From the sequence record OQ845958.1: a stretch of 64,000 nucleotides of DNA. One strand, written 5' to 3'. Source of the stretch: Escherichia phage pEC-M719-6WT.2. Numbering within the stretch: position 1 is the first letter of the stretch; every line of letters starts with the position of its first letter. The notes under the pieces were generated by a model. It did no database searches, was not told the DNA's origin, and worked only from the letters and a program-made list of their open reading frames with translations. The translations under genes were made by a program, and so were the position numbers. Below, piece by piece: positions 47,249-63,625 of this stretch.

Positions 47249-47703
47249 TGACATTAAATGAAGTCTCTGAAGGACTTTATGTTGCAGCCAAATTTTCAGA
47301 ATTAACTCTTGATGCGCTGGAAAATCTCCAGCGCTCTCTTAAGGTACCTAATCCCGTTCCTCGTGAAAAATTCCATTCCACTATTTGTTATTCCAGAGTA
47401 AATATTCCATATGTTGTTGCTTCCGGTAGTTTCGAAGTAGCCAACTCTGGTCACCTGGAAGTATGGAAAACCGACGACGGCAGCACGCTGGTTCTTGTAC
47501 TGGATTCAGATTATCTTAGTTGCAGACATATGTATGCACGAGCCATTGGCGCAACACATGATTTCCCGGACTATACTCCTCATATAACATTGTCTTATAA
47601 TGTTGGTCCTTTGACGTATAAAGGAGAAGTTCAGATTCCGGTTGTTTTAGACCGTGAATATAAAGAACCGCTAAAATTAAATTGGTCGGCGGATTTAAAG
47701 TAG
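47248..47703 (+). CDS. 57B: 57B-like protein
   Basis: 151 aa ORF directly after 57A (ATGA overlap); positional assignment only. Confidence 0.5.
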
Positions 47704-47741
47704 TGTACAAATAAGTGTAGGTGCAGTATTATGTTCCTACA
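47703..47741 (+). promoter_or_regulatory. Early promoter with the -10 inside a stem-loop (GTGTAC-N18-TATTAT; stem GTGTAGG/CCTACAC)
   Basis: GTGTAC 47703-47708, TATTAT 47727-47732, inverted repeat 47716-47722/47735-47741. Confidence 0.5.
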
Positions 47742-47767
47742 CCAACGAATGAACAAACGGAGTTAAT

Positions 47768-48100
47768 ATGAACATCAAAACTTACAACGAGTTTTTAGCC
47801 GAATCCGCCATCAATGAGACCAAATCAATTGATGATAGTGAAGGCTCTCTGAAATTTGGTTTAACCAAAAATGCAGATGGTGTTTTCTTTCAGATTGGTA
47901 ATGAACGTTTTCAAACGTCCAAATATTCCAAAGCTGCAGTTGAAGCTGTCCTGAAATCGGGTGGCAAGTGGAAAGGCAAAGAAGGTACTAAAGAAATTGG
48001 TATCGCTGTTGACGGCGGTATGGCTTATTTTAAAATTGGCGATGAACAATTTATTATGTCTGCTCGCGGACGTAAAGAACTGGCAAAACTTTATAAATAA
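47768..48100 (+). CDS. Internal-protein-like small protein with CTS-like N-terminus (MNIKTYNEFLAE), ipI position
   Basis: 110 aa, GGAG RBS, N-terminus resembles the T4 capsid targeting sequence, internal duplicated motif. Confidence 0.6.
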   Translation: MNIKTYNEFLAESAINETKSIDDSEGSLKFGLTKNADGVFFQIGNERFQTSKYSKAAVEAVLKSGGKWKGKEGTKEIGIAVDGGMAYFKIGDEQFIMSARGRKELAKLYK

Positions 48101-48108
48101 GGTTTCTT

Positions 48109-48381
48109 ATGAAAACTTTCAATGAATTTTTCAACGAGTCACAACTGAATGAAGAAGTAAAAATTAGTAAAGCGGTCAAAGCTATGATTGACAATATCAA
48201 TCACTTGTATAGCATTGACTTAACTGACCATATAACAATTGGCAACAAACGCAACTTTTTCGCGTTTGACATTTCAGAACTTGACCAGAACCAAATTAAT
48301 AACATTGAGCGCTTCGCCAATGACAAGGGTCTCCGTCATGAGACAGCTGGTTATAAAAAATACGCAATTTATCTAAAATAG
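48109..48381 (+). CDS. Internal-protein-like small protein (MKTFNEFFNE)
   Basis: 90 aa with CTS-like N-terminus. Confidence 0.55.
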   Translation: MKTFNEFFNESQLNEEVKISKAVKAMIDNINHLYSIDLTDHITIGNKRNFFAFDISELDQNQINNIERFANDKGLRHETAGYKKYAIYLK

Positions 48382-48389
48382 GATTTCAA

Positions 48390-48689
48390 ATGCAAACGCT
48401 CCATGAATTTTTGGTAGAAAACAATTACCTGGCAGAAGCAAAAACCTGGCCTCTGGGCCTTCAGAAGAAAAACACCTACAAATGGGTTGACTTCAAAGGT
48501 AAAGGCGACGCTGAAGACTTTGACCAGCTGCGTAAAAATGGTTATACCTTCCTTGACTCTAATTATAACAAAATTACCTCTTTTAGTCAGAAATCAAGCA
48601 TTGCTTTCATTGAAACTGGTAAGAACACCCCTAAAAATATCACTGACGACTTCGCTGCTTATGGCGTAATTCGTGGTAGTAAGATGTAA
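48390..48689 (+). CDS. Internal-protein-like small protein (MQTLHEFLVE)
   Basis: 99 aa with CTS-like N-terminus; followed by a terminator. Confidence 0.55.
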   Translation: MQTLHEFLVENNYLAEAKTWPLGLQKKNTYKWVDFKGKGDAEDFDQLRKNGYTFLDSNYNKITSFSQKSSIAFIETGKNTPKNITDDFAAYGVIRGSKM

Positions 48690-48696
48690 TTAACAA

Positions 48697-48720
48697 AAGG
48701 GGATAATTATCCTCTTTTTA
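48697..48720 (+). terminator. Rho-independent terminator (GGGGATAA/TTATCCTC + T-run)
   Basis: AAAAGGGGATAATTATCCTCTTTTTA. Confidence 0.6.
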
Positions 48721-48735
48721 TGGCTTGGAGACAAC

Positions 48736-61032: not shown

Positions 61033-61050
61033 CAACTACGGAGAACAAAC

Positions 61051-61467
61051 ATGACTCGCATTAACTTAACCCTGGTGTCTGAACTCGCTGACCAACATCT
61101 TATGGCTGAATATCGTGAGCTTCCTCGCGTGTTTGGTGCTGTTCGTAAGCATGTACAAAATGGTAAAAAGGTTTCTGACTTTAAAATCCCATCATCTTTT
61201 CTTTTAGGGACTGGTCATGTCACCTTCTTTTATGATAAGCTTTTGTTCCTTAAAAACCGGCATCAAGAACTTATTGCAGAATGTTTAAAGCGAGGGTTTA
61301 ACATAAAAGATATTTCTACCCAAGACTTAACTGATATTCCTGATGAATGGAAGAATGATTATCAACCATCAATCTGGTCAATTGAAATCAGTCAAGCCAG
61401 ACTGAATGAGAAAATTTCTCAAAAGCCTGCTTGGTACAAATACTATGGGAAAGCTGTGTACGCTTAA
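61051..61467 (+). CDS. denV: Endonuclease V (pyrimidine dimer DNA glycosylase)
   Basis: 138 aa; near-identical to T4 DenV ([35 protein letters not shown]). Confidence 0.97.
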
Positions 61468-61515
61468 CTAAAAAGGTTGTATAATGATTTTATCAACCAA
61501 ACAATGGAATATAAA

Positions 61516-61815
61516 ATGAAAACTTATCAAGAATTTATCACAGAAGCCAAAGCCCCTAAAGCATTCCAAATTGGGGTCCAAGGTACTTTAGACCAACAAT
61601 ATGTTGATGCTATTGTAGCAAGCCTCGGCAAGCAGGGTGTACAAGTGGATTTGGTTGATTTTACCAAAGGTAATACTTTTAATATTGTTACGTCTAAAGG
61701 CTCTTTAGCTAAAGTTAAAAAGGCTTTTGGTGTAGCACAAGCATACGAAATCGACCATTCTGAATTAGAAAATAAAGGTCGCCAGAACACAATTAAAGGC
61801 TCTGGTTCTTTCTAA
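61516..61815 (+). CDS. Internal-protein-like small protein, CTS MKTYQEFITE
   Basis: Track ORF 61477-61815; start moved to ATG 61516 to expose the CTS. Confidence 0.6.
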   Translation: MKTYQEFITEAKAPKAFQIGVQGTLDQQYVDAIVASLGKQGVQVDLVDFTKGNTFNIVTSKGSLAKVKKAFGVAQAYEIDHSELENKGRQNTIKGSGSF

Positions 61816-61979
61816 TAAAGGCAAGCCGACCCTCTCCTCATGAACGTTGCGTCCTCTGAGTGATGGACCTTTCCCTACCTGTAATAAGGTCGAGCCCAAG
61901 TGCGGTAAAGGGTTTACATACGGATACATGGATGAATTATGTGCCAAGGAATGGCCCCACAACTTAAAAAGAGACAATT

Positions 61980-62507
61980 ATGAAATTTTTAACTCCCATT
62001 TATCTAACCTTAATGCACGCCTTCGCTGAACGCGCCATTGAACGCTTAGATTCAGACCAATACACCTGGTATGAACCCGCTTCAAGAATGCAAGAGTTTG
62101 GTACTCTTAGACTTGACGGCGGAAGGCAAACAGGTAAAACAAGTGCCATTGCACAATTTGCTGCGGATTGGGTTTCTAAGGGTAATGATGTAATTGTTAT
62201 GTCGAGTTCTTCGCATCGCTCACGAGAAATCTGTGATATAATAAAGCGGGTTTCTAAAGCACAGCCACATCTTAATGTTGAACGACCTGGTTTTGTTGTA
62301 TATGATACTGTTCGTTCATTTTTAGATGAAGATCATTTTCACAAATATCGTGGACTGTCTGTTACCCGATTATTGATTATTATTGAAGAGCCTATTCGCC
62401 TACCAGCGATGGATAAGTTCTATGAAGCTTATCAGACAATGATGAATAAATTTATGTGCCAAGGTTCTAAACCTCTGCCACTGTTCTTTGTGATAGGAAT
62501 GCAATGA
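61980..62507 (+). CDS. Hypothetical protein with Walker-A-like motif (GGRQTGKTS)
   Basis: 175 aa; P-loop-like motif; vs.x region relative to T4. Confidence 0.5.
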   Translation: MKFLTPIYLTLMHAFAERAIERLDSDQYTWYEPASRMQEFGTLRLDGGRQTGKTSAIAQFAADWVSKGNDVIVMSSSSHRSREICDIIKRVSKAQPHLNVERPGFVVYDTVRSFLDEDHFHKYRGLSVTRLLIIIEEPIRLPAMDKFYEAYQTMMNKFMCQGSKPLPLFFVIGMQ

Positions 62508-62800
62508 TGACTGATGAAGAACTTTTTGAGTTCTGCTATTTCTCACGTAAGGTCCGAAGAGAGGACCTTACTACAAATTTTGAATATGCTTATTTCTATC
62601 CATTAGAATATGTATTCATGTCAGGGCCCTTTAAGGGCTCTCGTTTTAGATGCCACGCTCCTAGTATCCGATTAATGAAACAGGTTCCTTACTTCACCCT
62701 CGAGTTCATCTCAGGGCCTTGTAAGGGCATTATAACTCGTAGTCTCTTGACGTATGACCAAGAGATTCATATGATTTCTGACTGGAAAAAATATGTCTAA
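62504..62800 (+). CDS. Hypothetical protein
   Basis: 98 aa with ATGA overlap; internal duplication (FMSGPFKGSRF / FISGPCKGIIT). Confidence 0.5.
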   Translation: MMTDEELFEFCYFSRKVRREDLTTNFEYAYFYPLEYVFMSGPFKGSRFRCHAPSIRLMKQVPYFTLEFISGPCKGIITRSLLTYDQEIHMISDWKKYV

Positions 62801-63011
62801 ATTGACTATTGAAGGTTCTGAAGAAGCTCTGAAGATGTTTGTTGACTGGTTCCACGAACAGGGCGAACAAGGCTTTATGGAATGTTGGGACGGTGGCCAA
62901 TGGAATGGTAAAGAAATTGTTTATCCGAGTACATATATCTCTGTTCGTGGCGGATATGATGGCCTTCGTTTGGTAGAATATGATAATGCATCTGATGAGG
63001 AAGTGAAATGA
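62793..63011 (+). CDS. Hypothetical protein
   Basis: 72 aa; overlapping junction. Confidence 0.5.
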   Translation: MSKLTIEGSEEALKMFVDWFHEQGEQGFMECWDGGQWNGKEIVYPSTYISVRGGYDGLRLVEYDNASDEEVK

Positions 63012-63286
63012 TTGAAGATATCAAAGGTTATAAGCCACACACCGACGATAAAATCGGTAAAGTGAATGCTATTAAAGATGCTGAAGTTCGATTGGGCTTA
63101 ATCTTTAAAGCATTAGAAGAAGAATATGTTGAAGCCTTTACAGGCTCGGGTGTTGATAAAATGAGTGATGAAGAATTCAACCTCACTCATGAACGCATCA
63201 CCCAGATTCGTAATGCAATTGACCGTCTGAAAGAAGCAAGCATGTGGGCGTGTCGTTCCGTTTTCCAACCCGAGGAAAAATACTAA
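63008..63286 (+). CDS. Hypothetical protein
   Basis: 92 aa; overlapping junction. Confidence 0.5.
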
Positions 63287-63591
63287 TGTCACAGATTAAT
63301 TCTGGTTTTGGCTATGAGTTATCAACAGCTTCTCATCGCCGCATAAGCGATTCCAATCCGTTTGGATTCACATCAAAACCCAAGAAAATCCAGGGGTTAG
63401 ACGACTTTCAAGAAGTGATTCGTCAAGCTTTCCAGGACTATGCTCGATATCTTAAAGAAGATAAAGACGACTGTCTGGAAGAAGATGAAATAGAGTATTA
63501 TGAGCAACGTCTTGAACAGATTAAGAATTTGCATGCTGTTCGTAATGAAGTTACCCAAGCAATGAATAAGTTAATTTCTTTTAAAGAGTAG
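63286..63591 (+). CDS. Hypothetical protein
   Basis: Track ORF 63244-63591; start moved to ATG 63286 (MSQINSGF) at the stop of the upstream gene. Confidence 0.45.
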
Positions 63592-63625
63592 TGTACAAGC
63601 AGGTTGAAATGAGTTATGATTATCC
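63591..63625 (+). promoter_or_regulatory. Early promoter (GTGTAC-N18-TATGAT), degenerate stem-loop cassette
   Basis: GTGTAC 63591-63596, TATGAT 63615-63620, then TATCCCATCAAAC leader. Confidence 0.45.

Follow-up and report, generated by a model that had tools for sequence, protein, structure and literature searches.

The window analysed here, 64,000 nucleotides of the sequence record OQ845958.1 from Escherichia phage pEC-M719-6WT.2, is by its sequence relationships a T4-like coliphage genome. Escherichia phages ECML-359 and EAWsc9 (Tevenvirinae) share 97% identity with the part from 47.6 to 52.6 kb, which also matches hundreds of T4-like genomes. Between 46 and 64 kb the genes lie on the + strand throughout and, identified from the EAWsc9 and T4 annotations and from PHROG hits, run in the order gene 1, 57A, 57B (Acb1), five tandem internal-protein (IP) genes and small open reading frames (ORFs), followed by two tRNAs, e.x-type ORFs, lysozyme e, an IP gene, denV, another IP gene, small ORFs and regB. 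In gene content, 47.7-63.6 kb corresponds to the classical early, hyperplastic region of T4 type (57B - IP - tRNA - e - denV - regB). The gaps between its genes hold compact intergenic expression cassettes, which probably combine a T4-type sigma-70 early promoter and a short leader with a superimposed RNA hairpin.

A preliminary description of this DNA had counted at least eight intergenic sites of the form GT(G/T)TAC-N17/18-(T/C)ATAAT. In this strict form the pattern fits only three sites in the region, at 49290, 52521 and 61456, plus one outside it at 14373; the figure of eight is reached with the relaxed motif GT(T/G/A)TAC-N17/18-TATAAT, which tolerates a single -10 mismatch. The relaxed motif occurs at 8 sites on the + strand of 47001-64000, against 0.11 expected from 500 dinucleotide shuffles in which the highest count was 2, at 0 sites on the - strand of the same interval, and at one site per strand in the other 47 kb. 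All eight sites are intergenic or overlap the upstream stop codon, with a Shine-Dalgarno (SD) and ATG 18-45 nt downstream, so the elements survive the objection, raised beforehand, that they might be found inside coding regions at similar frequency. Three further early cassettes carry weaker hexamers, at 53040 (TTTTAC), 58185 (GTGTAC-N18-CACAAT) and 60995 (ATGTAC); the hairpins of the first and the third had been listed earlier, at 53054 and 61011, while 58185 had been missed. The region holds in total 11 early cassettes and one middle-promoter cassette. A generic sigma-70 scan for TTGACA-type promoters found no enrichment (59 vs 48 +/- 6), and the signal is therefore specific to the T4-type -35.

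The cassettes have the features of T4-type early (sigma-70) promoters, namely a -35 near GTTTAC, a 17-18 bp spacer, a -10 near TATAAT and co-orientation with the early genes. Immediately 5' of the -35, every cassette has an A/T-rich UP-like tract (aaaaaataa, ttcaaaaag, ttttaaagagta, cttaaaataaa and others), and such a tract is a described feature of T4 early promoters (PMC2988021). The predicted +1 is always an A, 7 nt past the -10, in the context YCC-A-TCAAC or YCC-A-TACTG, and the conserved leaders noticed earlier were recovered as repeat families D1, D2, D10 and D12, which start exactly at this position. GGAG, the target sequence of RegB (Uzan & Miller 2010, PMC3014915), stands in the SD of 7 of the 11 early cassettes, and cassette families recur within the genome at 60-87% identity. 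In the layout proposed, an A-rich tract would be followed by a -35 GT(T/G/A)TAC that usually abuts or overlaps the upstream stop, a 17-18 bp spacer, a -10 near TATAAT, and a leader of 18-45 nt with a GGAG-type SD. Because the hairpin arms occupy positions free of sequence constraint (spacer, discriminator and leader), the fixed hexamers fall in the loop, all within gaps of 55-85 nt. The cassettes, c0 to c12, and the neighbouring hairpins are as follows.

14373-14446, + strand: c0, outlying, before a 93-aa ORF; -35 GTTTAC 14373-14378, N18, -10 CATAAT 14397-14402; type-B leader ATACTGAGTTAAC... (D1/D2), SD GGAG 14433-14436, ATG 14444; no hairpin.
47703-47770, + strand: c1, between 57B and IP gene 47768; -35 GTGTAC 47703-47708 over the 57B stop codon, -10 TATTAT 47727-47732; hairpin GTGTAGG 47715-47721 / CCTACAC 47736-47742 with the -10 in the loop, z -2.33; predicted +1 A 47739, SD GGAG 47759-47762, ATG 47768.
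48699-48719, + strand: terminator-like hairpin before IP gene 48736; GGGGATAA/TTATCCTC, then TTTTT.
48980-49037, + strand: c2, between IP genes 48736 and 49035; -35 GTATAC 48980-48985, -10 TATAAT 49004-49009; hairpin GATGGGATAA 48988-48997 / TTATCTCATC 49009-49018 with one G.U, z -2.09; predicted +1 ~49016, SD GGAG 49026-49029, ATG 49035.
49290-49349, + strand: c3, between IP gene 49035 and a 61-aa membrane ORF at 49347; -35 GTGTAC 49290-49295, -10 TATAAT 49313-49318; hairpin ATGGGATA 49302-49309 / TATCCCAT 49319-49326, z -2.06; predicted +1 ~49325, leader TCAACTACTGAGGAGAATAAA, ATG 49347.
52462-52484: intrinsic terminator upstream of c4.
52521-52604, + strand: c4; -35 GTGTAC 52521-52526, -10 CATAAT 52545-52550; weak stem CATCC/GGATG in the spacer between the hexamers, z -0.23, non-significant; predicted +1 ~52557, type-B leader ATACTGAGTTAC... 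(D1/D2), SD GGAG 52591-52594, ATG 52602.
53040-53113, + strand: c5; -35 TTTTAC 53040-53045, -10 TATAAT 53063-53068; hairpin GGTGGGATA 53051-53059 / TATCCCATACT 53069-53079, z -2.71; predicted +1 ~53075, type-B leader, ATG 53111.
53563-53640, + strand: c6; -35 GTATAC 53567-53572, -10 CATAAT 53591-53596; hairpin GGGGG 53563-53567 / CCCCC 53576-53580, then TGCTTT, with the -35 in the loop, z -2.20; predicted +1 ~53603, type-B leader, SD GGAG 53628-53631, ATG 53638.
53949-54018, + strand: c7, middle promoter; MotA box TGCTTTA 53949-53955, 12-nt spacer, -10 TAGTAT 53968-53973; 8-bp hairpin GGGAACAT 53958-53965 / ATGTTCCC 53972-53979 enclosing the -10, z -2.41; ATG 54016.
57164-57225, + strand: c8; -35 GTATAC 57164-57169, -10 TATCAT 57188-57193; SD GAGGAA 57211-57216, ATG 57223; no significant hairpin (z +0.78).
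58185-58244, + strand: c9; -35 GTGTAC 58185-58190, -10 CACAAT 58209-58214; hairpin GGACTAT 58200-58206 / ATGGTCC 58213-58219 with one G.U, weak, z -1.17; predicted +1 ~58221, SD GAGGAA 58230-58235, ATG 58242.
60995-61053, + strand: c10, between IP gene 60726 and denV; -35 ATGTAC 60995-61000, -10 TATAAT 61019-61024; inner hairpin TGATAGGGT 61010-61018 / ACCCTATCA 61026-61034 enclosing the -10; outer helix ATCTCC 61001-61006 / GGAGA 61040-61044, in which the spacer pairs with the denV SD around the inner hairpin; whole segment z -4.57; predicted +1 ~61031, ATG 61051.
61456-61518, + strand: c11, between denV and IP gene 61516; -35 GTGTAC 61456-61461 within the end of denV, -10 TATAAT 61480-61485; weak stem GGTTG 61475-61479 / CAACC 61494-61498, z -1.68; predicted +1 ~61492, ATG 61516.
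63591-63652, + strand: c12, before regB; -35 GTGTAC 63591-63596, -10 TATGAT 63615-63620; helix GTTATGATTATCC 63613-63625 (-10 and discriminator) / GGAGATAATCATGAC 63638-63652 (SD and AUG), z -3.02; predicted +1 ~63627, ATG 63648.

The MotA-box consensus used for c7 was taken from PMC2988021. At c4, the start of the longest ORF, ATG 52542, falls inside the -10, the PHROG profile starts at residue 20 and an SD-ATG stands at 52591-52604, so that the real start is probably 52602 and not 52542.

Stem-loops around the hexamers

Eight of the 12 cassette segments in the region fold with z from -2.06 to -4.57, and 7 of the 11 early cassettes reach z <= -2.06, with no significant fold at 52521, 57164 and 58185 and a weak one at 61456. 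The inverted repeats reported in the preliminary description proved to be placed correctly within 1-2 nt, at 49304-49325 (GGGATAgcgTATAATTATCCCA), 53054-53075 (GGGATAgtgTATAATTATCCCA), 48991-49015 (GGGATAActgcagTATAATTATCTC), 61011-61032 (GATAGGGTTATAATGACCCTAT) and 47716-47741 ((G)TGTAGG...CCTACA(C)). Its general statement, that the -10 or the -35 is embedded in a hairpin, holds for the -10 at 47703, 48980, 49290, 53040, 58185, 60995 and 53949, weakly at 61456, and for the -35 in the loop of 53563-53580; it fails at 52521 and 57164, which have no significant structure.

The comparison was extended to 28 loci around 57B and 80 around denV, drawn from IMG/VR. Watson-Crick stems of at least 8 bp enclosing the -10 were found at 10 of 91 unique predicted early promoters, compared with 0.24% in flank-shuffled controls, so that long stems exceed the shuffled expectation more than 40-fold. 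With a looser promoter definition, 35 distinct stems with at least 7 Watson-Crick pairs were collected, many with unrelated arm sequences, and across phages the place that the arms take relative to the -10 is filled by no fewer than 15 unrelated sequences. Compensatory stem variants were seen, such as ATGGGCTCAT/ATGAGCCCAT versus ACAGGCTCAT/ATGAGCCTGT, and at the position of c9 the relative EAWsc9 has GTGGGAC/GTCCCAC. In the orthologous gap after 57B the arms around the -10 are, depending on the phage, GTGTAGG/CCTACAC, GATGAGGTAGT/ACTATTACCTCATC, GGTCTATAG/CTATAGACC, TAGGGT/ACCCTA or ATGGTA/TACCAT, and some phages have no promoter in this gap, the 57B stop overlapping the next ATG. Since the arms are unrelated and compensate each other, it is the structure that is conserved and not the sequence, which excludes both a common protein operator and mere paralogous copying, and the comparison indicates that the hairpins are real and selected.

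Paralogous copying would mean that the promoter-hairpin units are unselected copies left by tandem duplication of IP and other small genes. The IP genes are indeed paralogues with common 5' ends, genes 52602 and 53111 are paralogous and have a 97% identical 31-nt 3' repeat beside c5/c6 (the genes flanking c5 being paralogous in their C-terminal halves), and the GGGATA/TATCCC arms recur in three cassettes. Such an origin is nevertheless highly improbable as a full account, given the 15 or more unrelated arms at one position, the excess of long stems over shuffles and the covariation at denV and regB described below.

Hairpins relative to the transcript start

The predicted +1 of each hairpin cassette falls 3' of the 5' arm, and often 3' of most of the other arm as well. 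A transcript begun there could never form the hairpin, which would thus arise, and is proposed to act, only in read-through RNA that started at an early, middle or late promoter farther upstream. Two types can be told apart by the position of the hairpin with respect to the predicted start: in IP-type cassettes the hairpin ends at about +4 and leaves the ribosome site free, whereas at denV and regB the 3' arm is the SD itself, with or without the AUG. As a measure of masking, the energy needed to open the SD and AUG in the cassette's own RNA was subtracted from that in read-through RNA. This cost is +14.5 kcal/mol at regB, reached by 0 of 100 shuffled upstream sequences, +5.0 kcal/mol at denV, reached by 8 of 100, and +3.0 kcal/mol at gene 52602. 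For the IP-type -10-loop hairpins it is close to 0, below 97-99% of shuffles at c2, c3, c9 and c11 (71% at c1); folding thus predicts that a local hairpin of this type keeps upstream sequence off the ribosome site. Among 255 unique promoter-SD-ATG-ORF cassettes, 24% have a cost of at least 8 kcal/mol, compared with 1.9% when the upstream sequence is shuffled.

The helix at denV and regB is present in about 30 diverse phages. Upstream of regB, CTCC or CCTC stands 2-5 nt past the -35 and pairs with the GGAG/GAGG SD in 21 of 31 unique T4-like sequences, and this helix is extended by 5-7 phage-specific pairs (TTTTAGT/ACTAAAA, TGTAG/CTACA, ATTTG/CAAAT, TAGTTG/CAACTA, TTGACTG/CAGTTAA). Upstream of denV, 19 sequences have the same CTCC-SD design, and in most other T4-like denV the -10/discriminator pairs with the SD-AUG, for example TATGATGTCTTCC/GGAGGACATCATG and ATAGTAGCCT/AGGCTACTAT. 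RNAalifold found no structure in a plain MAFFT alignment of the sequences upstream of regB, since the arms do not keep the same register from phage to phage; the alignment for covariation was therefore anchored solely on the 4-nt core. In that alignment 78% of cells pair, versus 40-45% with slid partners, and the covariation score is 0.46, versus 0.17 with shuffled partners (0 of 500 reach it) and 0.09-0.13 with slid partners. Double changes occur in 12 of the 14 helix pairs, with 8-15 in each of the five extension pairs. This covariation supports the predicted masking helix of denV and regB. At regB in a few phages (loci L060-L062), a plain -10-loop hairpin takes the place of the masking helix, so that the two designs can replace each other.

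The preliminary description had proposed structure-dependent promoter control. One form of this idea is that the hairpin acts on double-stranded DNA, as a cruciform or as a palindromic operator for a dimeric protein that switches the early promoter; the inverted repeats have their centres at or close to the -10, and how T4 early promoters are shut off is, by the published description, only partly understood. The proposal is very hard to sustain, since the arms are unrelated between cassettes and carry compensatory substitutions, and a protein operator was rejected on the ground that the arms are unrelated and covary. As cruciforms, 7-11 bp stems around 7-14 nt loops would also be poor, as would helices whose loops reach ~35 nt; the stems occur in only a subset of the early promoters, and several contain G.T pairs. 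With the 5' arm upstream of the predicted start, the structure would concern read-through RNA and not promoter firing, so promoter control finds no support. RNA rather than a DNA cruciform is likewise favoured by the denV and regB arms, which stand up to ~35 nt apart and end in the SD.

For the IP-type cassettes, the proposal is of a helix that ends near +4; it would leave the ribosome site open and prevent pairing between the C-rich discriminator and the SD. The hairpin would then serve as a 3' structure of the upstream cistron, either an attenuator or an exonuclease barrier, and the IP genes would stay translatable from read-through and late RNA. Internal proteins are phage head components and are required late. 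The late promoter TATAAATA found at 48092, 5' of the IP cluster, fits the need for open ribosome sites in read-through RNA.

The classical reading is that the stem-loops are terminators or attenuators of the upstream gene that merely overlap the next promoter. The hairpins do begin 5-25 nt past the upstream stop codon, and in the T4 records they appear as potential terminators for e, ipIII, ipII, ORF 62.2 and ipI. The papers on promoter-early stem-loops (PeSLs) also call the stem-loops terminator/attenuators, and strong termination was measured for one RB49 stem-loop (Arbiol 2010, PMC2839356). True terminators with similar arms lie nearby, at 48699-48719 and 52462-52484, both with a G+C-rich stem and a U tract, and the -35-loop hairpin 53563-53580 is followed by TGCTTT. 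The -10-loop hairpins resemble intrinsic terminators in standing right behind a stop codon, but they have 7-14 nt loops and AT-richer stems and lack a U tract, preceding A-rich leaders such as ATCAACTAC. The terminator scan called none of them on the + strand, and it scored the c6 hairpin as terminator-like on the - strand. Expression of the IP genes, moreover, seems to need read-through from the late promoter at 48092, and the covarying helix of denV and regB, with a loop of up to ~35 nt and an end in the SD, is atypical for an intrinsic terminator. Termination as the main role is for these reasons doubtful, although it deserves more credit than the DNA switch. The hairpin at 48699-48719, with arms as in c2/c3 and a leader in common with c2 (...TGGAGACAACATGAAAACTTATCAA, family D6), has neither a -35 nor a loop carrying a -10 and looks like a collapsed cassette, and its comparison with c2 suggests that promoter-hairpin cassettes and plain terminators interconvert by loss or gain of the loop.

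Returning to a hairpin in read-through RNA, at denV and regB such RNA would be translationally masked and RNA from the own promoter open, and synthesis would be confined to the burst of early-promoter activity. RNA secondary structure protects against RegB cleavage according to the literature, so the GGAG of regB and denV is probably shielded from RegB in read-through RNA. In its general form this becomes a 'transcript-origin gate': transcription would start between the arms, and only RNA from the cassette's own early promoter would have an open ribosome site, read-through RNA being masked at denV, at regB and in about a quarter of the 255 surveyed cassettes and left deliberately open at the IP genes. 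The gate is put forward tentatively, its chances being somewhat less than even.

Several observations weigh against a hairpin of RNA superimposed on the early promoter, or limit it. The start sites are inferred from the spacing to the -10; the -10-loop hairpins without a U tract make a terminator role doubtful and leave their benefit uncertain; and 52521, 57164 and 14373 have no significant hairpin. The masking at denV in the window is modest, as the shuffles show, and the set of 255 cassettes is skewed to denV and regB neighbourhoods, the loci having been anchored on 57B and denV. Finally, G.U pairs versus A.C mismatches gave no strand asymmetry (3 vs 1; 6 vs 4), in small counts, so that the RNA level is unproven by that test.

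Module exchange and neighbouring features

The 60-90 bp of common cassette sequence, together with the common 5' coding sequence of the IP genes for capsid targeting, may provide homology for the exchange of modules. A stronger version of this holds that the cassettes are selected mainly as recombination linkers (PeSL-mediated shuffling, mini-circles), with the hairpin as a single-stranded DNA or cruciform hotspot, a mechanism proposed by Arbiol 2010 (PMC2839356) and Comeau 2014 (PMC4122927). It draws on the repetition of cassette families in the genome, on the presence of one cassette plus ORF between late genes 24 and 23, and on the same arms at denV and regB in some phages. In comparison with close relatives, 17 of 52 distinct homology breakpoints fall in cassettes, where 6.8% are expected (p = 3e-8 for random positions), and swapped segments are bounded by cassettes or by the capsid-targeting coding repeats (48397/48736, 48758/49276, 48706/49276 and, at c8, 57171/57205). 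However, 36 of the 52 breakpoints coincide with a gene boundary of one kind or another, and cassettes make up 47% of those 36, versus 34% expected, without clear specificity. The arms also differ between cassettes, which weakens homology exactly at the supposed hotspot, and covariation that preserves SD pairing is not explained by recombination. Selection mainly for linkage is thus unlikely, more so than termination; the 'recombination module' of the preliminary description is compatible with the data without being specifically supported, as breakpoint enrichment at cassettes is about that at gene boundaries generally.

The outlying cassette c0 and its ORF, which matches phrog_6003 (unknown function), occupy 14357-14725 on the early strand, between late genes 24 (13052-14332, -) and 23 (14776-16335, -), and have the appearance of a module that was inserted among the structural genes. 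The A/T tract upstream of c0 is overlapped by a - strand late promoter box, TATAAATA (14359-14366). In the same late structural-gene block, three MotA-box middle-promoter-like units (..TGCTT.A.. N12 TATAATGGTTCTA) lie on the + strand at 4604-4645, 10611-10651 and 20770-20811, with the same sequence 3' of the -10. The middle cassette c7 is the counterpart of the early cassettes in the middle mode and can be compared with the 'PmSL' described by Comeau 2014; homology with a close relative breaks near it, at 53945/53957.

About 35 nt of 5' coding sequence (MKTYQEF..., capsid-targeting signal; families D4/D5) is common to the IP genes at 48390-49081, 60726 and 61516. This repeat is the left-hand breakpoint of several gene-body swaps versus close relatives (48397, 48758, 49081), and forms a second kind of recombination linker beside the promoter cassettes. 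In several T4-like phages (loci L035-L038, L042 and L077, with denV at 4001 and regB at ~6100-6500), the arms at denV and at regB within a single genome are near-identical (ATCTCCTGTAG...CTACAGGAGAT) and ~2 kb apart, and such direct repeats could lead to deletion of the genes between them.

The tRNA pair consists of tRNA-Met/CAT at 50792-50867 and tRNA-Arg/TCT at 50868-50944. The 233-nt gap after it, 51196-51432, is highly structured; 51196-51248 and 51284-51310 have 92-94% identity to the T4 small stable RNAs rnaD/rnaC, and an Rfam scan reported the two tRNAs and no family over 51196-51432. At 56141-56669, three tandem small genes each end in a common 32-nt repeat (TGGGTGTCCTCCTCTT..GAATG.TAAGGAA; 69-100% identity) that covers the C-terminal codons, a CCTCC tract and the SD of the next gene. 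The repeat may encode a C-terminal peptide conserved in a paralogous family, or may be a further element that pairs with an SD.

Comparison with known systems

The arrangement of a promoter in a stem-loop was annotated in T4 in 1985-86 and later generalised as PeSL-like. In the T4 record X03016.1, the putative promoter PE2 lies within a 'pot. stem-loop structure' before ipI, and the putative promoter PE1 within a 'pot. stem-loop structure pot. IpI terminator' after ipI, the -10 being enclosed in both. The record X04567.1 gives inverted repeats A-D (e/ipIII, ipIII/ipII, ipII/denV, ORF 62.2/ORF 61.9 = regB) as potential terminators; each loop holds the -10 of the next gene, and the ribosome-binding sites (RBSs) of denV and ORF 61.9 (regB) are in the 3' arm. 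The cassettes described here occupy orthologous positions (57B/ip, ip/trna.4-like ORF, ip/denV and upstream of regB), with the -10 in the loop and the denV and regB RBSs in the 3' arm. In particular, c1 is orthologous to PE2 and c3 to PE1, with the same leader (TCAACTACTGAGGAGAATAAAATG at both); c10 corresponds to 'imp. inverted repeat C/C'', with the denV -10 in the loop and its RBS in C', and c12 to 'imp. inverted repeat D/D'' at the -10 and RBS of ORF 61.9. The arms differ, being TAGGGT/ACCCTA and TGATGAGGTA/TACCTCATCA in T4 but GGGATA/TATCCC and GTGTAGG/CCTACAC here, as does the -35, mostly GTGTAC or GTATAC here and GTTTAC in T4. The regB 5' arm is the -10/discriminator here but the spacer just past the -35 in T4, and the T4 annotation interprets the structures as potential terminators.

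PeSLs were defined in RB49/phi1 (Arbiol 2010, PMC2839356), where the stem-loop can occupy the interval between the hexamers, overlap either of them, or lie upstream or before the start, and were extended to PST/T4 and nt-1/KVP40 (Comeau 2014, PMC4122927). According to Arbiol 2010 (PMC2839356), through which that earlier study is cited here, PeSL-like elements with a higher AT content were observed at the two T-even IP loci by Repoila 1994; such elements are regarded as analogues, not homologues, of PeSLs. The likeness drawn in the preliminary description was apt, since Arbiol 2010 names stem-loops 'overlapping the -10 box' among the common subclasses and the T4 records show the same arrangement at orthologous sites. 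Common to both are an intergenic AT-rich tract, early promoter, stem-loop, SD and ATG, in hyperplastic regions beside small variable ORFs. PeSLs are also found near indels; here the breakpoints against close relatives are distributed as given above, with a 47% cassette share among those at gene boundaries. Here the stem-loop lies over the -10 in c1, c2, c3, c5, c9 and c10, over the -35 in c6 and, weakly, between the hexamers in c4. RB49 PeSLs have near-perfect TTGACA/TATAAT and polyG/polyC stems; the cassettes lack the RB49/phi1-type combination of near-consensus TTGACA-N17-TATAAT with such stems, only c6 having a G5/C5 stem. The PST/T4 figures place the stem-loops immediately 5' of the promoter, and terminator activity and mini-circles have been demonstrated only for RB49/phi1. 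In its plastic early region the phage thus follows the usual T4 design of early promoter plus stem-loop, and this architecture was already known. What is added is statistical and covariation support for selection of the hairpins and the distinction between sparing and masking types, which offers a concrete reason to place a promoter inside a hairpin: the arms straddle the predicted start, covary, and are predicted to mask the SD at denV and regB but not at the IP genes. For annotation, the cassettes supply promoters, probable starts and corrected start codons, such as that of gene 52602.

The closest functional parallel is with the T4 genes e, soc, 49 and I-TevI, which have masking hairpins with an internal late promoter (Uzan & Miller 2010, PMC3014915). 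The classical RBS-sequestering hairpin of gene e is present in the window (AATACCCC-tatataa-GGGGTATT, 60203-60225, directly 5' of the lysozyme e ATG 60226). In both systems, here by prediction, the SD and/or AUG is sequestered in the long read-through RNA. At the T4 genes, RNA from the internal promoter lacks the 5' arm and is alone translated; the predicted +1 would likewise remove the 5' arm from the own RNA of all hairpin cassettes here. The late-promoter box TATAAATA is not the internal promoter of the cassettes, such boxes lying elsewhere in the window. At e, soc, 49 and I-TevI the internal promoter is late and delays synthesis, whereas here it is early and would restrict synthesis to the first minutes, with masking predicted at denV and regB and not at the IP-type cassettes (ddG ~0). 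T4 regB is described only as having a 'typical early promoter' plus RegB self-cleavage (Uzan & Miller 2010, PMC3014915), and no paper stating a gate at early promoters was found in the literature searched. If true, the gate would extend the classical late-promoter device of e, soc, 49 and I-TevI to early promoters, and would help to account for the halt in synthesis of some early proteins, RegB among them, once the early promoters are shut off.

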